Of a stretch of DNA of 24,685 nt, positions 2,194 to 24,685 are shown in pieces; within the stretch, counting starts at the first letter, position 1, and every line of letters begins with the position of its first letter. Origin of the DNA: a virus (taxonomy: Duplodnaviria; Heunggongvirae; Uroviricota; Caudoviricetes); the IMG/VR virus record IMGVR_UViG_3300037257_000073; one strand, 5' to 3'. Position numbers and translations under genes: made by a program. A model generated the notes under the pieces. That model saw only the letters and a list, made by a program, of their open reading frames with translations. It was not told where the DNA came from and searched no databases.

Positions 2194-2622
2194 ATGGAAG
2201 AAATACTAAAGAAATTTAATTACAAACCCACAGAAGAAAATACTTGGGTTAAAGGTGAATGGACTGTTAGATTTGATGATGAACTCGTCGAAGTTTTTAA
2301 CGATCCTAATAAAAGTGCAGGCGAATATTATAGTTCACCAATTGCAACAGTAGATTTAGAATTAATATTAATGGAAGTTGATAGGAAAAATCGCTGACCA
2401 ATCGTTACTATGGTTACTGATATGATTACCGATGTAAATGCAGAATCAGAAAATGCAACTGGAAATACTTATATAATGTTTACTCCTCATAGAGTATGGT
2501 TAAAAGATTGGTTAAGGTTATGGGGTCAAGAAGAAAATGGAAGTTATTCTATTACAGGTAACAATATCTTTGTTGTTGATTCAACACTAAGTAAAGTAAT
2601 AGATATTACAAAACTAATATAA
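2194..2622 (+). CDS. Hypothetical protein (142 aa with TGA=Trp; track fragments 67 + 70 aa)
   Basis: Track ORFs 2194..2397 and 2410..2622 are in the same frame, separated only by TGA 2395-2397 plus four sense codons. Two separate genes cannot be excluded. Confidence 0.55.
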
Positions 2623-2651
2623 AAGTTAGAGGTTCTTTAAAACCTCATCAT

Positions 2652-2724
2652 ACCTTTGTAGTGTAATGGTTAGCACACAAATCTTCAAAATTTGTAAGTG
2701 TGAGTTCGAGTCTTACCAAGGGTG
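2652..2724 (+). tRNA. Opal-suppressor tRNA-Trp, anticodon TCA
   Basis: Full cloverleaf: acceptor ACCTTTG/CAAGGGT; D arm GTGT-AATGGTTA-GCAC; anticodon arm CAAAT-CTTCAAA-ATTTG (TCA at 2685-2687); 5-nt variable loop; T arm GTGAG-TTCGAGT-CTTAC; discriminator G. A1-U72 and G73 fit tRNA-Trp identity. No encoded CCA. Confidence 0.93.
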
Positions 2725-2742: not shown

Positions 2743-3309
2743 ATGAATAGAACAAGTAAAGAAGAATTAGAAAAACTAATATTAATAGATAAGTTATCAT
2801 ATGCTGAAATAGCAAGAACATTTGGTGTATCTGATGTTACTATTAGAACCTGGGCAATTAAACTAGGGATAAATATTCCTAGCCGAAAAAAAATATTGGA
2901 AAATAAGATATGTTTAAATTGTAATAATGAATTTAAACCATCTGGAACTACAAATAAATATTGTAGTCAACAATGTTCAAATGAACATAAAATAATTTTA
3001 AATTATGAAAAATATAAATTAGATAATTCCATACTTTATGGACAATCTAATATGTCAAATTATAAAAAACATTTTTTAAAAGAACAAGATTATAAATGTA
3101 CAATTTGTGGAAATCCGAATACTTGGAATGATAAAGAATTGGTATTTGTTTTAGATCACATTGATGGTAATGCTGATAATAATGAACGTAGCAATTTAAG
3201 GTGTATATGTCCTAATTGCGATAGTCAACTTGATACATTTAAATCTAAAAATAAAAATAGTGCTAGAGCAAAATACAGACAAACTTTAAAGGTGGAGGAA
3301 TGTGTATAA
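2743..3309 (+). CDS. HNH endonuclease with N-terminal HTH and Zn-binding motifs (probable free-standing homing endonuclease)
   Basis: N-terminal HTH (LSYAEIARTFGVSDVTIRTW), CxxC motifs, and C-terminal CTICG...LDHIDGNADNNERSNLRCICPNCDSQ. The track GTG start at 2722 overlaps the tRNA, so ATG 2743 is preferred. Confidence 0.85.
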   Translation: MNRTSKEELEKLILIDKLSYAEIARTFGVSDVTIRTWAIKLGINIPSRKKILENKICLNCNNEFKPSGTTNKYCSQQCSNEHKIILNYEKYKLDNSILYGQSNMSNYKKHFLKEQDYKCTICGNPNTWNDKELVFVLDHIDGNADNNERSNLRCICPNCDSQLDTFKSKNKNSARAKYRQTLKVEECV

Positions 3310-3656: not shown

Positions 3657-5921
3657 ATGAACGCAGGAAAGAAATTTTTGAGTGACTTAAAACTTCACTC
3701 TGACTACTTAAAGTGGAGACCAGAAGAAGGTCGATACGAAACATGGAATGAAGCATGTGAGTCTATAATCAATGGTCATAAAGATCATTATGCAGATGTA
3801 GACCTAAGTAAAGAATTAGAATACGCATTGAAATATATGCAATCTAAAACGGTACTAGCTTCACAACGAAATCTACAGTATAGAAATGAGCAGATCGAAC
3901 GTAACAATGCAAGACTTTATAATTGTTCATCTATGTATGCTGCTAGAAATAAAATATTCCAAGAAGTATTTTACTTAGCATTAAGTGGTTGTGGTGTAGG
4001 ATTAGGATTACTTATTCCTTTTGTGAATAACATTTCACAAGTAAATAAAAGAACTAAAGGGACTAAAACATTTATTGTTCCCGATTCAATTGAAGGATGG
4101 TCTGATGCATTTGGTGTATTGATGTCATCATTCTTCATTGATAAACAACCTTTTCCAGAGTATGCAGGATACGAAATTAAATTTGACTATTCAGAAGTAA
4201 GAGAAAAAGGTGCATTCATTAGTGGAGGATTCAAAGCTCCAGGACCTGATGGTTTAAAACAATCATTTGAAAAGATCGAAGAGTTCTTAAATAAATGGAT
4301 TACATCAGAAGGCACTAAACTAAGACCAATCGCTGTATGTGATATTCTATGTCACATCTCAGACGCAGTATTATCAGGTGGAGTTAGACGTTCTGCTCTT
4401 AACATGATTGTTGATCCAAATGATGATGAAATGATTAATGCTAAAGTTGGTAACTGGAGAACTAATAACCCACAACGTGGAAGAACAAATAATTCGGTGT
4501 TACTTCTTAGAAGTTTAACCGGAAAAGAAGAATTTGAAAAGCTTGTTAAAATGAATGATGGATATTCTGACATTGGTTTTGCATTTGCTAACTCATGGTT
4601 TGATATGTTCAATCCTTGTTTCGAAATTCTTAAACACCCAATTCTTCATTCAAAAATTAGTACAAAAATAAATGATGTATCTTATGATAAGATAGAAGAA
4701 TTTATTAGAGATAATGAAGACAAACTAGGTGTAGCATTCTGTAATCTTTGTGAGATTAATGCAGAACAATGTGATATAGTTGAGAATTTTTATTCTGCGT
4801 GTATTGCTGGTGCAATCATTGGAACACTACAAGCAGGTTATACATCATTTCCTTATCTTGGAGAAACCACTGAAAAGATTGTAAGACAAGAAGCTCTATT
4901 AGGAGTATCTGTTACAGGATGGATGAATAACCCAATGTTGTTTAACACCGACATTTTAAAACATGGTGCATCTTTAGTTAAAGAAACAAACAAGACAATA
5001 GCTGAAAAGATTGGAATTAATCAAGCTGCTAGAACGACATGTGTTAAACCATCGGGTAATGCATCTGTAGTATTGGGAACTGCGTCAGGTATTCATCCTG
5101 AACATTCTCAAAAGTATTTTAGAATCATGCAACTAAACAAAGAAAACGATACAGCCAAATGGTTGAACAAACATATGTCTTATCTTTTAGAAGAAAGTGT
5201 TTGGTCAAGTACTGGATCTGATTATGTTGTATTTGTTCCTATTGAGAATCCTATTGAGGGATTATATAAGAAAGACGTAAAAGGTGTTAAACATCTTGAA
5301 CTAATAAAACTAGTACAATTAAATTGGGTAAATGAGGGAACTAATCGCGATCTATGTGCATATCCTGATGTGAATCATAATACATCTAATACTGTTATTG
5401 TTGATGATCAAAAAGCTGTTATAGATTATATTTGGAATAACAAACATGACTTTACAGCAGTATCCTTTATATCTGATTACGGAGATAAAGATTTTACACA
5501 AGCTCCATTCACATCTGTATCTTCATTAGATCAACTAATGAGTGACTATGGAAAAGGTGCATTATTCGCATCTGGATTAATTGTTGATGGACTACATTAT
5601 TTTAACGACAATCTTTGGATTGCTTGTGATATGATTAAAGATAAATCAGTTCCTATTACTGGAACAAGAGAACAAGTAATGCTTAAGAAATATTGGTTGG
5701 CTAGAGCAAAGAAATTTGCTAACAACTTCTTTGGAGGAGATTTACAAAAGACTGTATATTGTTTAAAAGATGTACATCTATTTCATAAATGGGAAGTAAT
5801 TAATAGACAATTTAAACCAGTTGACTTTGGAGAGATTCTAAACAAGCCAACATATAAAGACATTAGTGACACAGCGGCCCAAGCTTGTAGCGGAGGTTCA
5901 TGTGAGATCACTAGATTATAA
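3657..5921 (+). CDS. nrdJ: Ribonucleotide reductase catalytic subunit, most like monomeric class II (RTPR/NrdJm)
   Basis: 754 aa with LYNCS, GGVRRSA, NPCFEI, CNLCEIN, TCVKPSG and C-terminal CSGGSCE motifs. No nrdB in the window. All 14 Trp codons are TGG. Confidence 0.8.
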   Translation: MNAGKKFLSDLKLHSDYLKWRPEEGRYETWNEACESIINGHKDHYADVDLSKELEYALKYMQSKTVLASQRNLQYRNEQIERNNARLYNCSSMYAARNKIFQEVFYLALSGCGVGLGLLIPFVNNISQVNKRTKGTKTFIVPDSIEGWSDAFGVLMSSFFIDKQPFPEYAGYEIKFDYSEVREKGAFISGGFKAPGPDGLKQSFEKIEEFLNKWITSEGTKLRPIAVCDILCHISDAVLSGGVRRSALNMIVDPNDDEMINAKVGNWRTNNPQRGRTNNSVLLLRSLTGKEEFEKLVKMNDGYSDIGFAFANSWFDMFNPCFEILKHPILHSKISTKINDVSYDKIEEFIRDNEDKLGVAFCNLCEINAEQCDIVENFYSACIAGAIIGTLQAGYTSFPYLGETTEKIVRQEALLGVSVTGWMNNPMLFNTDILKHGASLVKETNKTIAEKIGINQAARTTCVKPSGNASVVLGTASGIHPEHSQKYFRIMQLNKENDTAKWLNKHMSYLLEESVWSSTGSDYVVFVPIENPIEGLYKKDVKGVKHLELIKLVQLNWVNEGTNRDLCAYPDVNHNTSNTVIVDDQKAVIDYIWNNKHDFTAVSFISDYGDKDFTQAPFTSVSSLDQLMSDYGKGALFASGLIVDGLHYFNDNLWIACDMIKDKSVPITGTREQVMLKKYWLARAKKFANNFFGGDLQKTVYCLKDVHLFHKWEVINRQFKPVDFGEILNKPTYKDISDTAAQACSGGSCEITRL

Positions 5922-5937
5922 ACTTAACAAACAATTT

Positions 5938-6648
5938 ATGGGAAAAGGCACACGAGAAAAGCGTACTGAGAAACGCGAGAAAAACAGATTACCCGAAAAA
6001 CAATCTAACTTAGTAAATGATTTCAAACCAAAGAATGAGAAACAACAAGAGTTTATTAACCTTATAAATGATAGAGAGATTATCATTGCTACAGGTCCTG
6101 CTGGAACAGGTAAGACATATGTAACATTAGCAACAGCTTTATCATTATTAGGTTCAATCTATAAAAAGGTTATTCTTGTAAAGTCAGTAACTACTATTCC
6201 CGGAGAAGAAATAGGATTCCTTAAAGGTGGAATGGAACAGAAAATGGAACCATTTATAATGTCTTATATGTGAAATATTGATAAGATCTGCGGAGATAAA
6301 TCTGCACAGAACTTACTTGATAAAAAAATAATTGAAGTATTACCACTAGCTTTTATTAGAGGTTTATCAATTGATAATGCTATTGTAATAATCGATGAAG
6401 CACAAAACATAGATAATCATACTTTTAAAACAATGATGACTAGAATTGGAGAAAACTCAAAATACATTCTTCTTGGAGATAGTGAACAAATAGATAGACG
6501 TAAGAAAAGCGAATCGTGTTTAGCGAAAGTTATTGAGATATTTACTGATTCAGATATTATTGGATCAATAGAATTTAAAGATGAGGATTGTGTGAGAAAT
6601 CCAATCATTCCTATAATTTTATCTAAACTAAGAGAGAACGGAATCTAA
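5938..6648 (+). CDS. phoH: PhoH-family ATPase (236 aa, one in-frame TGA at 6271)
   Basis: Walker A GPAGTGKT, GEEIGFLKG, LAFIRG, Walker B IIDEAQN, TRIGENSK and LGDSEQID are all in one frame across TGA 6271-6273. Confidence 0.92.
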
Positions 6649-9209: not shown

Positions 9210-10658
9210 ATGATAATGAAAAATGTTTTATTTAATGGAGATGCAAAAGACATCTTAATTGAAGGAGTGAATTTAATAGGCGATGCTGTGTCAACAACAT
9301 TCGGACCTAATGGAAAAAATGTTATAATCAAAGGACTCTCAGGAGTGTATATAACAAAGGATGGAGCAACCGTTGCAAAATATGTAAACGATGATGATCC
9401 ATTTATTAGTACAGGTATTGAACTTATAAAAGGTATTGCAACTAAAACAGCAACTGATGTTGGAGATGGTACAACCACTGCAACTATTCTTGCTCAAACT
9501 TTAGTTAATACTTTAAAAGATAAGACTGAAAATCCAATTGCTATAAGTAGAGAGTTAGATAAAGAACTCAAACAAGTTATAGAATATTTGGAAAAGAATA
9601 AAAGAACAATCACAAGTGTAGAAGACTTAATTAAAGTTGCCACAGTATCTACAAATAATGATATTGAACTTGGTAAACTTGTAGCTGAAACTTATTTTAA
9701 AGTTACAAAAGATGGAGTAGTAACTATAGAAGATTCACAAGATACACATAATTCAGTTGTGTTTTCACAAGGAGTTAAAATTGAATCAGGATATAACTCA
9801 CCATACTTTGTTAATACAACTAAGAGTACATGTGAACTAGAAAATGTATTAATTGCAGTTTTTAGAATACCTTTAACTGAGATTAAAGATATTGACGAAG
9901 TATGTAGTAGAGCTATGAGAGAAAAGAAAGCACTTCTTATTATTGCTCCAAAAATGGAATCCACAATACTAAGAACTCTAGTACATAATAATAATACAGG
10001 AAATCTAAAGTCTTGTTTTATTAGTTCACCCGGACATGGTATCTATAGAGAAACTTTACTTGATGATATCGAATGTATTGCTTCTACTTCAGTTTGTGAA
10101 AAAATTATAGTATCAAAAGATACTACATATCTAATAGGATGTGAATCTAACCAATCGGTTATTGATGCTAAAATATTAGAAGTAAAAAATACACTTAGTT
10201 GTAGTACAACTGAGTTTGAAATGACGTTTCAAAGAAAGAGATTAGCTAATTATATTGGTGGTATAGCTACTATATTTGTTGGTGGATATTCTCAAGTTGA
10301 AATACAAGAAAAGAAAGATAGATTAGAAGATGCTATTTGTGCGGTTAGAGCTGCTATGACAGATGGTATATTACCTGGTGGAGGTTTCTCATTACTTAGA
10401 GCTGCTAAACTTTTAGACTTAAAATATTTAAGTAAAGTATTGGTAATGCCTAATTTAATACTATCTGAGAATAAAGCAGATGGTATAGATATTTTCAATT
10501 TCTGGGAAGGTAAAGACTATAAGACTAGACAAATTGGAGACATGTATGAAATGGGAATCGTAGATCCTTTCCTAGTAACAAAGATAGCTTTAGAAAATGC
10601 AGTATCAGTAGCATCACTGATCTTAACTAATGGATGCACAATATTAAATATAAATTAA
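9210..10658 (+). CDS. groEL: Phage-encoded GroEL-like chaperonin (482 aa)
   Basis: TFGPNGKNV, ITKDGATVAK, GDGTTTAT, KDRLEDA, GILPGGG and GIVDP motifs. No GGM tail. Confidence 0.95.
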   Translation: MIMKNVLFNGDAKDILIEGVNLIGDAVSTTFGPNGKNVIIKGLSGVYITKDGATVAKYVNDDDPFISTGIELIKGIATKTATDVGDGTTTATILAQTLVNTLKDKTENPIAISRELDKELKQVIEYLEKNKRTITSVEDLIKVATVSTNNDIELGKLVAETYFKVTKDGVVTIEDSQDTHNSVVFSQGVKIESGYNSPYFVNTTKSTCELENVLIAVFRIPLTEIKDIDEVCSRAMREKKALLIIAPKMESTILRTLVHNNNTGNLKSCFISSPGHGIYRETLLDDIECIASTSVCEKIIVSKDTTYLIGCESNQSVIDAKILEVKNTLSCSTTEFEMTFQRKRLANYIGGIATIFVGGYSQVEIQEKKDRLEDAICAVRAAMTDGILPGGGFSLLRAAKLLDLKYLSKVLVMPNLILSENKADGIDIFNFWEGKDYKTRQIGDMYEMGIVDPFLVTKIALENAVSVASLILTNGCTILNIN

Positions 10659-10661
10659 AAA

Positions 10662-11018
10662 ATGACAATGATTATGGAAAAAGAAATTATGCCCCTTGGA
10701 TTAAATATATTTGTACAGCCTTATGCTGTTAATCCTTATTTGCAAGTAGTATCTGCTGGTGGACTACAATTAACTAATGGAGAGTTTCAAAATCCTGATA
10801 GTGGAGAAGTTGAACAACTAACATCACATATTAAATGTGGAATAGTTTTAGAAGTTGGAAAAGATTGTAAACAAGTAAAAGTTGGAGATGATGTATTTTA
10901 TAATGCGCATACAACTACACCAATTCCTTTTATGGGAAGGGGTTTTATACTAACACACGAACCTGGTGTTATGTGTATTATAAATGAAGGGTTAAAAGAA
11001 AGATTTAAAAACAATTAA
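10662..11018 (+). CDS. groES: GroES-like co-chaperonin (118 aa)
   Basis: PLGLNIFVQP...SAGGLQL...GIVLEVG...VKVGDDVFY follows the Cpn10 pattern; directly downstream of groEL. Confidence 0.8.
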   Translation: MTMIMEKEIMPLGLNIFVQPYAVNPYLQVVSAGGLQLTNGEFQNPDSGEVEQLTSHIKCGIVLEVGKDCKQVKVGDDVFYNAHTTTPIPFMGRGFILTHEPGVMCIINEGLKERFKNN

Positions 11019-13702: not shown

Positions 13703-14536
13703 ATGAAAGGATTTATATATAAATTAATATCACCAAGTGGTAAATGTTATGTTGGACAAACAGTCAACATGAAAAAAAGATTGAGTGAATATAAAACATT
13801 TCATAATTGTAAAAATCAGAAAAAACTATTTAATGCTATTAAGAAATATGGTTTTAATAATTTTGAACATAGTATATTAGAAGTAATAGATTTCGAATTA
13901 AAATCAGAATTACAAGATAGATTGAATGAATTAGAAATTGAATATATTTCAAAATATGATTGTGTAAAAACTGGATATAATATATGTAGTGGTGGAAATC
14001 AACATAGATTAGGAGTAAAAGAAACTGAAGAACAAATTCAAAAGAAAAAAGATCGTTGAACTGATGATATGAAAAAGAATCAATCTGAAAAATTTAAAGG
14101 AGAATTAAATCCAAGATTTGGAAGTTCTGAAAAAACTTATTCAAAAAAAGTTAATCAATATGATAAAACTGGAAAATATATAAAAACTTGAGAAAGTGCT
14201 GCAATTATTGAAAGAGAACTAGGTTATAGTGCTAAAAATATAGGTAGTGTTTGTTTAGGAAAGAATTTAACAACATGTGGGTTTATTTGAAAATTTTATA
14301 TTGATTCTAAAGATAATATAATTCCAGAAAAAAGCAAAAGAGGAAAACAATCAACTAAAGGAATTCATACTATTTCTATAATACAATATTCAAAAGATAA
14401 TATTTTTATTAAGGAATTTGTTAGTATAACTGATGCAGAAAAAGAATTAAATATAAATCATGCTAATATTTCAGCATGTGCTAAAGGTAAAAGAAAAACA
14501 GCGGGAGGTTTTATATGAAAATACTTGATGGAATAA
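13703..14536 (+). CDS. GIY-YIG homing endonuclease with two NUMOD1-like domains (277 aa, 4 TGA=Trp)
   Basis: GFIY...YVGQT, LEIEYI...GYN, then QYDKTGKYIKT-W and the motifs TCGFI-W-KF and KTAGGFI-W-KY. TGA at 14057, 14189, 14288 and 14516. Confidence 0.9.
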
Positions 14537-16623
14537 CATGAGATTTTGGTCCAGATGATAAAATTGAATATTTCGATAGTTATAAATCTTTCTTTATGAC
14601 TAAATATCGCCCTATTAATGATGTTGATGCATTAGACTTTAATCCTGATTGATTTAGAGAAGATGCAATTAACAAATTAAAAACAGGTAGATATAGTCCA
14701 TCATCTATACCTATGGGTTCTAAAACTCATAGAGATTGATGGAAAGAAAGAATACGTAGATGTAATGAAGGATATGAAGTCAATGGTTATCGTATAACTG
14801 GAGATAATTATTTCTTCATTAATTTTTATAACCTTAAATCTTCTGATTCAGAAACAATTAATCAATCTTATGGATTTCCTGAGTTTCTTGTTTTTCAATA
14901 CGAATATTTCCATTACTTGGAAATGTGTGAAAAATTAAAGAAAGATACTTCAGTACTTAAAAGTCGTGGTATCGGATTCTCGGAAATGGCTTCTAGTTTT
15001 ATAACTAGACCATATACAACAATTCCTAACTTTCGTTCAGTAGTTTCTACGTTTTCAGAAAAGCATTTGAAACCAACACTTGATAAGATATGGATTCAAA
15101 TGGATTGATTAAATGAAAATACAGAAGGAGCTTTCAAAAGGGTTAGAATGGTAGCAAATTCTAAGACTCATAAAAGAGCATCTAAGAAAGATAAAGATGG
15201 TGGTGAAGCGCCAGACAGTCATAAGTCAGAAGTAGAAGGATTAGTATGTGATGAACCCGATAAGTTAAGGGGTGATAGAACACAAATTCTAATTTACGAA
15301 GAAGCAGGAGCAGATCCTGTTTTGATGAAAAAATGAGTTAAAGGTACTGCATTAATAACAGTACTTGGAGGTAAACGCGTTGGTAGAAAGATTGCATTTG
15401 GTACAGGTGGATCATCTAAAGCTAGTTCTATGGAAGGACTTAAAAGAATGACAAATGATCCAACTGCATATAATATTTTACCTGTTAAACATAATTATAC
15501 TAGAGATGGTAGATACATATTAAGTGGATTATTTATTCCAGCTTATAGAGTTGTTTATGATTTAGTTGATAAACGAGGATGATGTAATTTAGAAAAAGCT
15601 AAAGATTGGTATGAACAAGAAAGAATTAAATTAGTTAATAGTCCAAAGGATTTACTAGAATTTAAGTCAGAGTATTGTTTTACTATTGAAGAAGCTCTTA
15701 TACAACATGCTGATAATTTATTTCCTAGAGAAGAACTTGCAGAACAACTTGCACAAATAGAAATTTACAAATCAACTCCTACAATACATTCAGGACATCT
15801 TGTATGAAAACGAGATGGAGATGATAGAGCAGATGGGGTTAAATGAAGAGAGGATGCACAAGATGGAAAAATCCAAATTATAGAACATCCTTTAATGTCC
15901 GAATTAGGGACAGATTATAAAAACTTATACGTAGGTGGAATTGACTCTATTGATATTGGTACTGCTGATTCAGCAAGTGCTGATGGTAAAGGATCTGAAT
16001 TTTGTATTGTTATAAAGAAAAGAGTGTTCGGACAATCTGATCCTGTTTATGTAGCAATGTATAAAGACAGACCTAAAGATCCTAGAGAAGCTTACGATGC
16101 AGCAGCAAAACTATTAACTTATTATGGATGTCAAGCTGTATTAGAATCAACAAGAACAGCTATTATTACTTATTTTAGAGATAAAAAATATTTACATCTA
16201 TTAATGAAAAGACCAAGGTCTACAATGCCTGATGTATCTAAAGGTAATAGTCAAATGTATGGAACTCCTGCAACAGTTAAAGTTATTCTACATTATCGTG
16301 AATTAATATATGATTACATTTTGGATTACTCCCGTACAATGGCGTTTAAAGATATGGTTGATCAATTATTAGATTATACGGATGAAGGAAAGAAAGACTT
16401 TGATATCGTAGCTGCAATGGGAATGTGTGAACTTGGTGATGAAGAAATGTCAGTTAAACGTCCTGAAGCAAAAGAAGTAGAAGGTAAAGGATTCCAAAAC
16501 ATAGGTTGGTGAACAGATAATAAAGGTTATAAACATCATGGTATAATACCAGCAAAAGACAATAGAGATGGACGAGCTAGAATTAGCGCAAGCGATTCGT
16601 GATTATATAAAGAGCTGATATAA
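14515..16623 (+). CDS. terL: Terminase large subunit (702 aa, 10 TGA=Trp)
   Basis: Single frame from ATG 14515 to TAA 16621. Motifs GYRITGDNYFFINFY, LKSRGIGFSEM (Walker A region), LIYEEAG (Walker B), FGTGG, YVGGIDSID and FDIVAAMGM (RNase H-like nuclease). Confidence 0.92.
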
Positions 16624-16842: not shown

Positions 16843-19038
16843 ATGGATAAACAAATTGACGATAAAGAAAAAGATATAATGGATAATATAGATAGAGCTA
16901 TTAATGAATTGGTTTATGAAAAAACCCAAATCATTAAAGCCTATAACTATTATCATGGTAAAAGAGACCCTGAACAATTCAGACATTTAGAAGAAAATTA
17001 TGGGATAGGTACTCCTACATCAATTGAATTTGTACCATTAGTTAGAAAACACGTAGATGTTTTAATTGGTGAATACTTATCAACGCCAGTTCTTCCTAAA
17101 ATTTCTTGTAAAGACCATACAACATTATCAAATATTGATAGAGATAAACAATTACACATACATGATAACATTGCTAAAGAATTAAATAAGCATTTAAAGA
17201 ATGCTGTATATAGTTCTACAATAGGATCAGATGCTCCTGATAAACAAATTGAATTAGAACTTCAAGAATTACATGAATCACTCGATAGAAATTTTATGTC
17301 TAACTATGAAATAGCAGGACAAAATATAGTTGATTGAACAATGCAATCTCGAATAATTGATTTTGAAAATCAAAGAAAAATATTACTAACAGATTTATTA
17401 GTTAGTGCGACAGCTTATTATAAAGTATGTCCATCAGTTAGTAAATCAAATGTAAAACTTAGAGTATTAAATCCAATAAATACATTCATTGATAGAAATC
17501 CAGAATCACCTTATCTTAAAGATTCGGCACGTTCTGTAATTAGAGATTATTTAACTAAGGATCAAATACTTGCAAAGTATGGAGATTCATTAAAACCTGA
17601 TGATTTAGAATCATTAGATACATTACAAGATTTTGCTAATGATGGATCAGCAACAACTTATCTTAGAAGTTATGATTCAGTTACAGGAAATACAATGTCA
17701 GATGGTATACTTGGGGGATTTGAAATAACTCCTCTATTACCTTATGAAAGAAGTACTTCTAAATATTTTAGAACTTTTCCAGTATATGAAGTTGAATGAT
17801 TAAAGACTGAAAAAGAAGATGACAAATATATTACTAATCGTTATGAAGGTGTACGTATAGCTACTAATATTTATATTACTACAGGTAAATGTGAGGATGT
17901 AGTTAGAAGTGTAGATGATAAAACACATTGTACATTAACAGTAAATGGTATGTTCTATTCTGATAGAAATGGCGATCCTTTCTCTCTAGTATTAAAGACA
18001 GCGAATTTGCAAGACAAATATGACTTGATTAATTTTATGAGAGATAACGTAATATCTGAATCAGGTACTGCGGGAGATTTAATTGATATAGCTCACTTAC
18101 CTAAAGTATTAGGTGCAGATTTAGCTGAAAGATTAATGAAATTTAAAGCTTATGGTAAAGCTGGTATGAAATTATACGATTCTTCACAAGAAGGTCAAAT
18201 GCTTAATACTGCTATGAATGGATTTGATGATACATTAAAATTTAATACTATACAAGCTTTTGATTTAGCGATTCAAAGAATTGAAGATACTTGTTCAATG
18301 ATTACAGGTGTATTTAAAGAAAAATTAGGTGGAATAGAACAACGAGATGCTGTAACAAATGTTGCAGTAGGTGTAAGAAATTCTTCTTATATTACTAAAC
18401 AATACTATCAAATTATGGACTTAATAACAAGAGAAATCTTAATTGATATTCTTAATCTTGCTAAAATTGTTTATAAGAAAGGAATGAGTGGGTCACTTAT
18501 ATTAGGTGATAGATTAAATAAAATATTTACAGCATTACCTGAACATTATACAACAACTGATTATGATATTCATATTGGTGATAGTTCTGAAATTATGAAA
18601 GAACAAGAAACTATCAAACAATTAGGAATGGAATTAGTAAAAGGAGGATTGGTTGATCCAGAAACATTAATTGAAATTATTACATCGAAAGGTTTAACTA
18701 AAATGAAAGAAGATGTTAAGTTATCATTAGCTAAGAAGAAAAAAGAAAATGATCAACTTGGACAATTACAACAACAATCCGAACAATTACAACAACAATT
18801 AAAACAACTTCAACAAGAAAATTCAAAACTACAAGCTCAGGTTGGTAAAAACAATCAAGAGAAAATGGAGATGGATAGAGAAAGATTATCATTCGATAAA
18901 GAACTTGGATGGTATGAAGCTAAAAATTTATCAGAATATAATGCTGCTAAATTGGAAGACGATAAAACAAGAATCAAACTTGAAGGAGCACAATTATTAG
19001 ATGCTAATCATCGTAATGATGAAGTTAGAAACAGCTAA
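16843..19038 (+). CDS. Portal protein (731 aa, TGA 17335 and 17797=Trp)
   Basis: Three track fragments are in one frame. crAss-like portal motifs AYNYYHGKRD, YGIGTPTSIEFVPL, VYEVE-W, LGGIEQRDAV and a Q-rich C-terminal coiled coil; follows TerL. Confidence 0.88.
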
Positions 19039-19284: not shown

Positions 19285-19896
19285 ATGATTCAAATAAACT
19301 TACTAAGAATTTCACCAGATAGTAAATATCTAGAATTTAGTGTAGAGTGTCCAACAAATTATTTATTTAATAAACTATTTATTAAGAAATATGATGCTAT
19401 ACCAATAAATAGTACAGATGATCTTTGAAGAGATGTATCACATCTATTACAAAGAACTTCTACAAAAGAAATTATGAGAATATCTACTGAGGCTTTAAGT
19501 GGATTTCAAATTGAACCTGGTGTTGATGGTAATTTGGCAAGTACATTATTTTATGTGCAATTTGGAGTAGAGTGAATTGAACCTACACCAGGTAATCCAA
19601 CATTACCAGTACCACTTATACCAGATGTTATTGGAGTAACATCAGATGTAAATAAAGTATATATTCTTTTAAAAGATTACTTACTTAATTTAGATGCAAG
19701 ATGTATTACAACAAATGATTATCAAACATTAATCAGAAATTATATGTTCTTATATGCTCATTTAGAAGCCATGAGACTTGAACGATTTGATGATGCTGAA
19801 ATGTTTTATGATATTATAAAGAAACAATTTATCTCTTGATCACCTTGACTAAGAAGTGATAATTCAAGAGTATTGAATGATTGTAATTGTAAATAA
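19285..19896 (+). CDS. Putative virion structural protein, possibly neck/ring (203 aa, 4 TGA=Trp)
   Basis: Continuous frame from ATG 19285 to TAA 19894, TGA at 19426, 19573, 19837 and 19846; ends CNCK. Absent from the track. Confidence 0.65.
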
Positions 19897-19897
19897 A

Positions 19898-20626
19898 ATG
19901 GAAGAAGTTAAACAATCAATAGTATCAACTACAGTTAAATATTTGAGAAATCTTGAATATTTAGCTATAGATGATAAAAAATTATCAAATGACATAATGG
20001 CTTTAATTGTAGTCGATGAAGTATTTGATTGAGCAAGTTGATCAGGAGAACCTTCAACAGTACAAGTAAAACTAAAGAAATTTAGAAAAGATATAATTAG
20101 AAACAATCCTAAGATTATAGAAGAAATGCAAAGAACTAATGAATTCTATAAAAATGTAAATACACCACAAACTATTTATACATGACAACGTGTATACGAT
20201 AATGTAGATGTAATTACAGTTGATGATCCTAGTGGTATTATTCCAGAACCTTATACACCTCCATATTTCTGAGGTAAAGTTGTAAGTAATACTAAACCAA
20301 GTAAAAATCAATCATTGATTAATTCTGGAACTATGGTTTATGGAGATCCAAGTGAAGCATTAAACATTCCTTACAACTCTAATAATACAGATTATTTATG
20401 GTTTGCAATTCCATCAGATATTCAATCTAAAGCAATATGATATGTTGATAATCAAAATAGTGGAGATATAGGTGGAACAAGAAATCTATTTGATACTGAA
20501 ACTATAATGACAATTAGAATTCCAGAAACACTATTAGATAAAAGTTATAAAATATATATGACTAATTATTCAACACAAGTAGCTTCATTATATGTAGCAG
20601 AATCACTTGGACAAATACCTGCATAA
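19898..20626 (+). CDS. Putative virion structural protein with C-terminal beta-rich domain (242 aa, 5 TGA=Trp)
   Basis: Continuous frame. YLWFAIP...W-YVDNQNSGDIGG...YKIYMTNY resembles beta-sandwich domains of phage tail/head appendage proteins. Confidence 0.65.
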
Positions 20627-20627
20627 T

Positions 20628-22085
20628 ATGGCAATAGATTTTAATGATAACTTACAAATACGAGCACCAAAATCTATTGATGATAGATACGGTCCTTGAG
20701 AAACAATTGAAGAGGGGTTAATTAATGTACCTCGTCCATATAGACATGATAAATTAACTTTAAATATTAACGGAGTTGAATATTGATTTAGAAACGGGTT
20801 AGAAGATGTTGATTTAATAGTTAAAGAATATGGTAGTGGTGGAGATACAAGTAAATGAGAACAATCTACAATGTTAGTCCAAGATGTTAAATATGGAAGA
20901 CTTTATAATTGATATATTGTAATAGATTCTAGAAGTATAGCACCTAGTGGTTGACATATTCCAACTTTATCTGATTTTCAAACATTAAGTAATTTTTTAG
21001 GTGGAGATGATGTTTCAGGTGGAAAATTAAAAGAAACAGGAAATACTTATTGAGAAAGTCCAAATGTAGATGCTTCTAATAGTGTTAATTTTAATGCTAG
21101 AGGTTCAGGAGTAAGAGATACAGATGGTTCATTTTATTTAATAAATAGACATTTGGGTTTTTGAGCTTATGATGAATATAGTAATTCAGAAGGTAAACTA
21201 ATTGATATTAGTAATGATAATGCATATGTTTTATTAAGTGTTCCAAGTATAAAAGAAACTGGAAGATCAATTAGACTTATTAAAGATAATTCAATTAATG
21301 AAGGTAGTATTGTAATTGATGGAATTACTTATCATTCAGTAACTATTGGTAATCAAGTTTGATTACAACAGAATTTAGCTACAACCCATTATCAAAATGG
21401 TGATTTAATTGGTTCTGATTTTAGTGGTACAGAAGGGGCTGTAGCTGCGTACAATAATGATGAAAATACTGTTTATAATCTTATAAATGGAGAAGATCCT
21501 ATTCATATTAAACCAAAAGATAATAAAAGAATTAATGCAGATATTATAGATGGGTTGCCAATAAAAAATCCTGTAATTATTAACTTTACTGAAGCTGGTG
21601 TTTTTGATGTTTTAAATACTTATGACATAATAATAACAAATGGTACAAATATTAACTTATGATTACCAGTAATAAATGATGTTGTTGACGGAAAACAATT
21701 AATATTTAAGAATGAAAATTCTACAAATGTTAGTAATATACTGGTTTTAGATCTTGATGCGCAAATTGAAAATTTAGGACATGGAGTACCTTATCAAATT
21801 CCACCTAATAGTTCTATAACATTAATAACTAATAGAATTAGTAATAAATGGGATATTATAAGTGAATATATTCCACCTAAAAATATAATACAAGAAACTC
21901 CAACTGGTGCTACAGATTCTGTTAATACTGAATTCGTTTTATCTAAAGAACCAAAAGATATATTTAACTTACAGGTTTACGAAGATTCGGGTGTATCATA
22001 CGTTGTTTCTTATTTTGATGCAAATACAATATATTTAATTGATACCCCAGGGTCACATATAACTTGTAGATATATTCCAAAATAA
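20628..22085 (+). CDS. Virion/tail-associated protein with a FISUMP (Fib_succ_major)-like domain (485 aa, 9 TGA=Trp)
   Basis: YGRLYN-W, PSG-W-HIPT, LGGDDVSGGKLKE...W-ESPN, SIRLIKD and TIGNQV-W-LQQNL motifs. Invisible in the code-11 track. Confidence 0.8.
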
Positions 22086-22107: not shown

Positions 22108-24685
22108 ATGATACAAAGCAATATACTATTAACAGATATTGTAATTCCTACAGTAGATAATTTAATAGTAACTGATGTACCAGATGAAGTAACAGTTAAA
22201 GATAGCGATATTATATCAACTACTTTAACTGTTACTTTATTAAATTCTGAATTCATTCAACATGAATCTCAGAATAATCCATCATTATTAGATTTGAATA
22301 CAACAGAATTCAATAATCTTTCAAATGAAATAGTAGTAACACCTACTATACAAAATAATGGGATGTTATTAAATACTGATATTCCGGTATACGATAATGC
22401 AGTTCCTACAGATTTATCATTGAATACTAATTCACCAAGTAATAATGATGTATTAGGATCATATGAATCTGTAAATGCAATCCCAAGTATCACACCAGGA
22501 TCTGGAAGTTTATTTCCATCCGATCCAACATTACTTCCTCAAATTAATAGTTTGTTTGAATTATTACAATACTTATCAGAAGTAATGATGAGATTTAATA
22601 GTGACCCAAATTATTATATGCAAGATGATTTTGCAATATTAGTTAAAACGATTACTAATGCTTTGATTCATTTATATTTAAATGCTCCATTATCTACTGG
22701 AGAAGTAGAAGGATTATATGCAGCATTAGGAACTAAAGTTGATAAAATTCTCGGAAAAGGATTAAGTACTAATGATTTAACAGATGAATTAAAAGCTGCT
22801 TATGATTCCGCGTTCTTAGAAACACATTTACATAGTAATAAAGCAGCATTAGATTTAGTAAGTGGTAAGAATACTGGAGATCAAGATTTATCAGTATTAC
22901 AACCAAAAGAAACTGGAAAAGGATTATCTACTAATGATTTTACTAATACATATAAAAATAAATTAGATGGAATTCAAACTGGAGCAGAAGCAAATGTAAA
23001 TGCTGATTGAAATGCAACTAGTGGAGATACTTTAATATTAAATAAACCTAATATTCCAAGTATAACAGGATTAGCAACTGAAACTTATGTTCAAAATTAT
23101 GCAGAACCTAAAAAAGGAACTGATGATAATTATGTAACTGATTCAGAAAAGACAAATTTACATGCACCACATAGTGATGATCAAGATCTATCTGGATTAG
23201 TTGTAAAAATTCCTGGATATTCTTTAGTATTAAATGTAGATATTGCTAAAATACACGTAGCTCATAGTGATGATCAAGATTTAACACCTTATGAAACTAT
23301 TGCTAATAACAATATTAAATTAGCTACTAAAGAACCAGCTAATGCTAATATACAAGCTCACATTACTAATACAAATAATCCTCACTTTACAACTAAAGCA
23401 CAAATTGGATTAAGTCAAGTAGATAATACTAGAGATATAGACAAACCTATATCAATCTTAACTCAATTAGCTTTAAATACTAAAGAACCTAATATAACAT
23501 CAGGATTAATTACTGATTACTGAAGAGGTGATAAAACATTCCAACCTTTAAATAAGGCTGCTGTAGGTTTAGATAATGTAGATAATACATCAGATTTATT
23601 GAAACCAATATCTACTGCTACACAAAGTGCATTAGATTTAAAATTAGATGTATCATTAAAAGGAGCTAATAATGGATTGGCAGAACTTGATTCAAATGGC
23701 TTTGTAAAAAATTCACAATTACCATCTTATGTAGATGATGTATTAGAATATACTTCTATAAGTTTATTTCCTACAGTTGGAGAATCTGGTAAGATATACA
23801 TAGACACAACCACTAATTTAACTTATAGATGAGGTGGAACTACTTATGCTATTATCAGCTCATCTTTAGCTTTAGGAGAAACTTCAGCAACAGCATATAG
23901 AGGAGATCGTGGAAAAATTGCTTATGATCATTCACAAATAAATAGCGGTAATCCACATGGATTAACTTTATTAGATATTGGAGCTCAAGCTCAATTAAAT
24001 GGTACTGGTCTAGTTAGAATGTCTGGAACTTCTATTACTTATGATAATACATCATATGTTTCTGGAACTCCATGAACATCAGTTGGATATTGATACTCAG
24101 GTAGCCATCCTACCACAACTAGTGGATATGGTTTACCAGATTATCCTACAACTTTACCAGCTAGTGATGTTTATTCATGAGCTAAAGCTTCTACAAAACC
24201 AAGCTACGCTTATTCAGAAATAACTTCTAAACCTACATTATTATCTCAATTTACTAATGATTTAGGTAATTATGGTTCATTTGTTACTGGTACTCCTTGG
24301 ACTGGATATGGATATCTTACTGGTATAACTGGAACTCAAGTTACTACAGCATTAGGATACACTCCCTATAATTCTACAAATCCTAGTGGTTATATTTCTA
24401 GTATAACTAAATCCCAAGTTGAAGGAGTTCTTACTGGACTAATAACTACTCATACACATAACTATTTATCTAGTTTTACTGAAACTGACCCTATATTTAT
24501 TGCATGGAATAAATCTACTGGCATAAGCATTACTAAGTCGCAGGTTAGTGATTTTCCAACTAATCTCAGTCAATTTAATAATAATCTTGGTAACTACGGT
24601 GGATGGATAACTGGTATCAACTCAGGAATGGTTACTACTGCTTTAGGTTATACTCCACTACCTACTAGAACATTCGGTTCAGCAG
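22108..24685 (+). CDS. Tail fibre / long tail-appendage protein, partial (>859 aa, 6 TGA=Trp so far)
   Basis: Frame stays open to the window end with TGA=Trp. Repeats GKGLSTND x2, HSDDQDL x2, GLxxVDNTxDxxKPIS x2, VTTALGYTP x2 and LSQFxNxLGNYG x2. Confidence 0.8.

Follow-up and report, generated by a model that had tools for sequence, protein, structure and literature searches.

A tRNA gene with a UCA anticodon very probably lets a distant crAss-like phage read UGA as tryptophan, mainly in its late genes

We analysed a stretch of 24,685 nt of phage DNA (the window), which forms part of a record of 64,836 bp. ARAGORN called a tRNA gene with the anticodon tca at 2652-2725 on the plus strand, and this was its sole call both in the window and on the entire record. 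The Rfam family RF00005 (gathering score 29 bits) matched 2652-2724 with 62.9 bits and an E-value of 1e-11, with the whole model covered. A complete cloverleaf with a TCA anticodon and a short variable loop had been proposed here from the letters alone (in what we call the sequence-only reading), and the tRNA caller and Rfam both agree with it.

The feature (2652-2724, plus strand) was annotated from these matches as a Trp-like opal suppressor tRNA of type I, 73 nt long, and is referred to below as tRNA(UCA). It has an acceptor stem of 7 bp (ACCUUUG/CAAGGGU), a D stem of 4 bp (GUGU/GCAC), an anticodon stem of 5 bp (CAAAU/AUUUG) that closes the loop CUUCAAA, and a T stem of 5 bp (GUGAG/CUUAC); the variable loop has 5 nt. 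A1-U72, C2-G71 and the discriminator base G73 can be read directly from the sequence, in which C74 falls at position 2725 and no 3' CCA is encoded. ARAGORN gave the label 'SeC', which follows from the anticodon alone. When we considered tRNA-Sec as an assignment it was rejected, as the molecule has neither the long variable arm nor the 8+5 arrangement of acceptor and T stems.

Directly 5' of the tRNA gene lies an ORF of 142 aa (2194-2622, plus strand; one in-frame TGA and five TGG), for which no family match was found. It is followed by a 7-bp hairpin (2629-2646, plus strand), the 3' end of which stops 5 nt short of the tRNA 5' end. The hairpin is terminator-like on the minus strand only, and no T-run follows it on the plus strand. 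Directly 3' of the tRNA is an HNH homing endonuclease gene (2743-3309, plus strand; PHROG 10822, E 8e-22) with no in-frame TGA. The tRNA is placed in a TGA-poor block, about 9 kb upstream of a TGA-dense block. In a scan for sigma-70-like promoters, sites were no commoner than in shuffled sequence, and the Bacteroides -7 motif TAnnTTTG was seen 34 times against 40.6 expected. As this motif is not enriched, its copies at 2162 and 2565, 5' of the tRNA, are not evidence of a promoter.

The genes that could be named in the window are all on the plus strand. A ribonucleotide reductase (3657-5921; PHROG 367, E 6e-78) has no TGA and 14 TGG codons. The PhoH-like ATPase (5866-6648; Pfam PF02562, E 3e-57, residues 54-251) contains one TGA, at residue 136, and is full-length only if this codon is read through; on comparison with PDB 3b85 the TGA fell in a variable stretch, and the inserted residue was not indicated. 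GroEL and GroES homologues (9210-11018; PHROG 5725, E 5e-107, and PHROG 3188) are free of TGA. Further to the right is a GIY-YIG/NUMOD homing endonuclease (13703-14536; 4 TGA and 0 TGG), which is flanked by a 191-aa gene and the terminase gene and overlaps the start of the latter by 22 nt. It looks recently inserted, since it is missing from this site in a phage with 96% terminase identity (L048).

The crAss-like large terminase (14515-16623; PHROG 6681, E 2e-70) has 10 TGA and 4 TGG codons, and the portal protein (16843-19038; PHROG 6547, E 4e-51) has 2 and 1. Two ORFs of the virion block without a family match (19285-20626) carry 4 and 6 TGAs. They are followed by a FISUMP-domain protein (20607-22085; Pfam PF09603, E 1.5e-29) with 9 TGA and 1 TGG, for which a comparison with solved structures gave no match. 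The last gene is a tail fibre (22108-24685) with 6 TGAs within the window; from 24559 on it is identical to the fibre of a second phage that is described below.

Summed over its plus-strand code-4 ORFs, the window has 52 in-frame TGAs, which reproduces the figure of about 52 in the sequence-only reading; a further TGA, in an ORF extension running across the tRNA gene, is an artefact and was left out. When the coding density expected under the different codes was compared, ORFs of at least 100 aa covered 79% of the 64.8-kb record with code 4, as compared with 53% for code 11; taking TAG as sense gave 58%. The right half of the window gives short ORFs under table 11 and an unbroken array of plus-strand genes under table 4, so that long ORFs are restored, and the terminase is a single ORF of 702 aa only with its 10 TGAs read through. 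All of the code-4 ORFs terminate in TAA or TAG. The record and its relatives need to be translated with TGA as tryptophan; otherwise their terminase, portal and virion genes look fragmented.

We further examined how TGA and TGG are distributed over the crAss-like part of the record. An early block (ORFs whose end lies no further than genome position 22,540) had 16 TGA and 64 TGG codons, and a late block (ORFs from 22,563 on) had 46 and 18 (Fisher p = 4e-10). The recoding is thus not genome-wide, as had been put forward; the TGAs are concentrated in the late genes. Off-frame TGAs numbered 405 in the early genes, and the scarcity of in-frame TGA there is therefore not a scarcity of the trinucleotide. 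The exonuclease has 0 TGA and 4 TGG and GroEL 0 and 1, and the leftmost ORF, an open-ended leftward one of 554 aa with no family match, has 0 TGA and 17 TGG. The partition is leaky. PhoH and at least five other ORFs of the early block contain TGA, and a strict switch between early and late genes is for that reason too simple. The codon partition between early and late genes offers material for testing the idea of the code as a timer.

One ORF inside the TGA-poor block has a composition of its own. It encodes 123 aa (genome 11156-11527, ending at window position 8), contains 5 TGA and 0 TGG, belongs to no known family, and lies just after a replication-initiator-like gene.

The terminase search matched 130 phage records, the best of them at 44% identity. 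When the terminase was compared by tblastn with the Suoliviridae and other Crassvirales listed, identities were 26-31%, mostly over more than 80% of the protein. The phage has both a crAss-type terminase (PHROG 6681) and a crAss-type portal (PHROG 6547). As judged from these protein comparisons, the large phage is a distant crAss-like lineage. On a contig of 174,982 bp we found a reductase neighbourhood that is 100% identical, together with an identical (100%) copy of tRNA(UCA), and the size of this phage is for that reason put at about 175 kb. Relatives are of similar size (G002, 176.9 kb, with terminal repeats; G003, 173.9 kb). No genes of the RF1/RF2 type or the TrpRS type were found on the record or in two near-complete relatives.

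The relative G003, also a TGA-recoded large phage, has a UCA tRNA of 96 nt (L030:1395-1490) with A1-U72 and G73. This tRNA has an extra arm with the loop CUUCCAAAA, which has CCA inside it and resembles the anticodon loop of tRNA-Trp. The tRNA of the window shares the anticodon, A1-U72 and G73 with it. As the form in the window is a plain one of 73 nt without the extra arm, both designs of UCA tRNA occur in one clade. Besides a normal tRNA-Trp(CCA), two tRNA(CUA) genes are present in G003.

A suppressor tRNA could be directed mainly against the host: read-through of host UGA stops would impair defence proteins, and the recoding of the phage's own genes would be secondary. This idea was proposed by Yutin et al. 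2021 (PMC7886860) and in a 2025 study of the zeta group (PMC12386605), and it draws support from relatives that have a suppressor without matching recoding, such as G003, in which the two tRNA(CUA) genes are found with no TAG in the terminase. As an account of tRNA(UCA) we consider it very unlikely, since about 46 client codons lie in essential late genes, 10 of them in the terminase, and decoding them is a function that the phage needs and that suffices to explain the tRNA.

The amino acid at TGA was approached through alignments. With 120 homologues aligned, all 10 TGA columns of the terminase held W, or W with F or Y. These columns behaved like the four TGG columns of the same protein; Gly and Cys occurred in none of them, and Arg at one TGA column in a single homologue. 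In a codon alignment, 9 of the 10 terminase TGAs matched a TGG codon in at least one relative. The terminases of MT835470, cr115 and cr273 are free of TGA and have TGG opposite the TGA sites, and TGA and TGG were seen to exchange among close relatives within the terminase clade. In the FISUMP-domain protein, the TGA sites 102, 116, 149, 186 and 252 corresponded to W in 34-38 of about 39 aligned segments (counting bacterial proteins named as Bacteroidota or carrying a T9SS sorting domain). Over all segments, Gly was present in 5 at one TGA site and Cys in 1 at another, and neither was ever common. The sequence-only reading had placed many TGAs at Trp positions and had named Gly, Cys or Sec in the TGA columns as the result to be looked for against it; the columns hold Trp and other aromatic residues instead. 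On the evidence of these columns TGA is tryptophan, and Gly (code 25), Cys and Sec do not fit.

We also evaluated the tRNA itself. Homologous UCA tRNAs are present in three relatives (G004, G005 and L047; terminase identity 62-74%), and U72 and G73 are kept in all of them. Compensatory changes keep the pairing at 11 of the 16 predicted stem pairs in 5 sequences. An exact search of IMG/VR with a 39-nt stretch of the tRNA gave no match beyond the window's own record. A tRNA-Trp(CCA) was identified in each of four Bacteroidales genomes (a Paludibacter MAG, two Bacteroidaceae MAGs and Bacteroides congonensis), and we aligned those of the Paludibacter MAG, one Bacteroidaceae MAG and B. congonensis with tRNA(UCA). 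A1-U72, C2-G71 and G73 were common to all four, and the T arm was nearly identical. The anticodon loop (C32 U33 N34 C35 A36 A37 A38) is also the same in the three Bacteroidales tRNAs, and position 34 differs. tRNA(UCA) thus lacks the CCA anticodon of tRNA-Trp by having U34, and keeps C35 and A36. The sequence-only reading had claimed Trp identity elements for this tRNA; A1-U72, C2-G71, G73, C35 and A36 are all found in the aligned Bacteroidales tRNA-Trp(CCA).

The nearest neighbour of tRNA(UCA) among 33 distinct tRNAs of related phages was a tRNA-Trp(CCA), at 74%. When UCA and Trp tRNAs of the phages were combined into a model, its top match in the four Bacteroidales genomes was the host tRNA-Trp. 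Overall, tRNA(UCA) is 57% identical to the host tRNA-Trp versus 50% to tRNA-Arg. Among annotated phage tRNAs, BLAST matched tRNA-Arg as well as tRNA-Trp genes with about 80% identity over 54-57 nt, and this leaves the isotype undecided; BLAST against E. coli genomes gave no match. As the overall identity is modest and BLAST ambiguous, the codon alignments are the strongest evidence for Trp. Bacterial TrpRS recognises its tRNA by G73, the first base pair and the anticodon, and C34 is a TrpRS identity element in E. coli. With U34 in place of C34, the putative charging of tRNA(UCA) with Trp may be inefficient.

It is highly improbable that tRNA(UCA) inserts another residue at UGA, such as Gly (code 25), Cys or Sec, or Arg or Gln by mischarging. 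[quoted passage not shown] The TGA columns hold W, F and Y, however, with Gly, Cys and Arg rare and never the common residue, and a variable loop of 5 nt with a 7/5 acceptor and T stem is not the architecture of tRNA-Sec. ArgRS recognises A20 and G or U at position 36. These Arg elements are absent, as tRNA(UCA) has U20 and A36, and at positions 1, 72 and 73 it matches tRNA-Trp and differs from the Arg, Lys and Gln tRNAs of the Paludibacter MAG.

The 64.8-kb record holds more than the crAss-like phage. From genome position 36,177 to 64,836 it contains a complete second phage (module B), with genes for a serine integrase, a replication initiator, the small and large terminase subunits (the large one PHROG 9, E 4e-150), a portal, an S78 protease, an HK97-type capsid, a tape measure, an S74-type fibre and an M15 lysin. 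The record closes with 99 nt (64738-64836) that are an exact, in-frame repeat of genome 36,078-36,176 (window 24559-24657). On independent contigs of 28,788 to 28,926 bp module B occurs alone, and there position 64,836 is contiguous with 36,177, so that one fibre gene of 957 aa results. The 175-kb contig and two other large-phage contigs assembled at k=141 end 141 nt into the shared segment.

These observations indicated that the record combines two phages, a crAss-like fragment and a circular temperate siphophage of about 28.66 kb, which are linked by a segment of the fibre gene that both share. We also considered module B as a part of the same phage; this was rejected as the simplest reading, as module B closes on itself in the independent contigs. 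The same join between the crAss-like part and module B is seen in a second JGI assembly (L095). An assembly chimera is the simplest reading of the join, which may also be a real cointegrate. As the record is composite, the CheckV completeness of 39% given for it is unreliable. The window lies entirely within the crAss-like part.

The temperate phage is itself recoded. About 49 of its approximately 82 Trp codons are TGA (about 60%), including codons in replication and HNH genes, and its integrase has 0 TGA and 4 TGG. Neither ARAGORN nor Rfam found a tRNA in it. With 91% identity, the closest relative by large terminase is a prophage located on a Paludibacter sp. MAG contig of 432 kb; for prophages of Bacteroidaceae, Parabacteroides, Phocaeicola, Tannerella and Muribaculaceae the identity is 64-77%. 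TGA-recoded relatives are found as prophages of the Paludibacter MAG and of two Bacteroidaceae MAGs (L058, L059, L063); prophages of cultured Bacteroides, Parabacteroides and Phocaeicola have TGG at all these sites.

For the host of the crAss-like phage we combined several lines of evidence. All terminase matches with named hosts are phages of Bacteroidota (Bacteroides, Flavobacterium, Cellulophaga, Tenacibaculum and Azobacteroides). Shine-Dalgarno motifs are not enriched upstream of the starts (9% versus a background of 8%), and the leaders are A-rich and G-poor. Missing Shine-Dalgarno motifs together with A-rich leaders are a Bacteroidota pattern, and this argues against a Firmicute host. 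The two phages share an identical fibre sequence and co-occur in samples, which suggests that they have the same host or closely related Bacteroidales hosts.

In the four Bacteroidales genomes (the Paludibacter MAG, the two Bacteroidaceae MAGs and B. congonensis), prfB (RF2) was found above the curated cut-off. When we inspected the 11 best-scoring tRNA loci in these genomes, none had a UCA anticodon; they belonged to tRNA-Trp(CCA) and to the Arg, Gln and Lys tRNAs. When 20 kb of the window was compared by BLAST with the three candidate host genomes, similarity was seen at the level of GroEL only, and no match resembled a CRISPR spacer. Most likely, as approached through the second phage, the host is a member of the Bacteroidales that would terminate at UGA and is probably Paludibacter-like. 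A Bacteroidota host with code 11, as the sequence-only reading had it, is thus supported by the leaders without Shine-Dalgarno motifs, by the Bacteroidota terminase relatives and by RF2, though only indirectly.

The RF2 matches in the Bacteroidaceae MAGs and B. congonensis (L070, L071, L072) include in-frame TGAs. One prfB TGA may be the usual programmed +1 frameshift site, which would imply that UGA is a stop there.

That the host itself decodes TGA as Trp (code 4, as in Mycoplasmatales), with the phage tRNA only adding to the supply, would be the simplest explanation for a tRNA-less, TGA-recoded second phage on the same record and would suit an AT-rich phage (29% GC, like code-4 organisms), but we find it barely credible, since 0 TGA against 14 TGG in the reductase and 0 against 17 in the 554-aa ORF are unexpected at 29% GC, the temperate phage integrase is also TGG-only (0/4), RF2 is encoded in the Paludibacter and Bacteroidaceae genomes in which the nearest relatives occur as prophages, these genomes carry tRNA-Trp(CCA) with no UCA tRNA at the 11 best-scoring loci, and the terminase relatives with known hosts all infect Bacteroidota.

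Together, these studies have led us to conclude that very probably a phage tRNA of the tRNA-Trp type, with UCA in place of CCA, lets the crAss-like phage of about 175 kb read UGA in a standard-code Bacteroidales host. tRNA(UCA) would be made as a transcript of the early or middle block, which is poor in TGA, and its CCA end would be added by the host. The host TrpRS would then charge it, recognising G73, A1-U72, C35 and A36; the host enzyme is proposed here because no phage TrpRS was found. The charged tRNA would compete with host RF2 at UGA, and ribosomes could then read through the approximately 46 TGAs that lie in frame in genes for packaging, virion proteins and homing endonucleases. The early and metabolic genes, in which Trp is almost solely TGG, should be translatable before the tRNA accumulates, and the net effect would be that late-gene expression depends on the phage's own tRNA. 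From sequence, we infer that the code switches during infection, as had been supposed, and its timing and regulatory purpose would likewise be putative parts of this scheme.

The sequence-only reading had held that recoding in crAss-like phages is not new, and the literature agrees. Yutin et al. 2021 described TGA-to-Trp and TAG-to-Gln recoding with suppressor tRNAs in crAss-like phages, mostly in late genes and especially in the zeta group of 145-192 kb (PMC7886860), and the 2025 zeta study reported the phage Lera, with tRNA-SUP-TCA and with TGA in the terminase and structural genes (PMC12386605). Borges et al. described code-4 clades, a model of early and late genes, and recoded prophages with stop-free integrases, and they detected a suppressor in only 35% of code-4 phages (bioRxiv 10.1101/2021.08.26.457843). 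The same arrangement is therefore already published for crAss-like and other phages, and what is new here is the distant lineage.

The present phage resembles the zeta-group phages Lera (PV725988) and c815351 in having a crAss-like terminase and portal, a size of about 175 kb and a tRNA(UCA). Like them, it has TGA as Trp mainly in the structural, terminase and homing-endonuclease genes, contains many homing endonucleases, and has no phage RF1 or TrpRS that could be found. Unlike them, its terminase is at most 44% identical to any record of the phage collection (about 26-31% to the named Crassvirales listed), its likely host is Paludibacter-like and not a gut Prevotella or a Firmicute, and its suppressor tRNA is set apart from any tRNA array.

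With the Jade, Sapphire and Agate clades of Borges et al. it shares a host that, for this phage, probably uses the standard code, a late enrichment of TGA as Trp, a low GC content and the placement of the suppressor tRNA in a region compatible with the standard code. In Jade, however, TrpRS and RF1 are encoded with the tRNA beside the lysis cassette and the host is a Firmicute, whereas the present phage is of another lineage, neither enzyme was found on its record, and some 9 kb separate its tRNA from the TGA-dense block downstream.

The tRNA-Trp(UCA) of Mycoplasmatales and mitochondria has a type I body, is charged by TrpRS, and reads UGA (and UGG) with U34. The phage tRNA is similar in joining a type I tRNA-Trp body with U34. 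The phage differs from these systems in that a virus brings the tRNA into a cell which probably keeps RF2 and tRNA-Trp(CCA), and the phage tRNA serves only part of a viral gene set. The phages that tie their late translation to a suppressor tRNA of their own would gain a distant crAss-like lineage, one that probably infects a Paludibacter-like host.

A further idea, which we regard as a long shot, is that tRNA(UCA) also acts in trans, so that superinfection of a lysogen by the large phage would make the lytic genes of the temperate phage translatable. It is suggested by a temperate phage that is recoded and tRNA-less and has a TGA-free integrase, by RF2-encoding hosts, and by the shared fibre. 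If true, prophage induction or piggy-backing would be gated by a change of the genetic code made by another virus. The pairing of a tRNA-bearing with a tRNA-less recoded phage, apparently in one host, is the more useful lead.

We also noted that terminases of prophages from the temperate phage's family may contain in-frame TAGs. There were 9 in a prophage of a Bacteroidales MAG (L064, 6360-7967) and 4 in one of a Muribaculaceae MAG (L068, 10001-11611), and one prophage lineage therefore spans members with the standard code and members recoded at TGA and at TAG. The temperate phage also encodes, beside the integrase, a 150-aa tRNA_SAD protein (PF07973, with an AlaX-type tRNA-editing fold; genome 43452-43904, minus strand, corresponding to L015:7453-7905).
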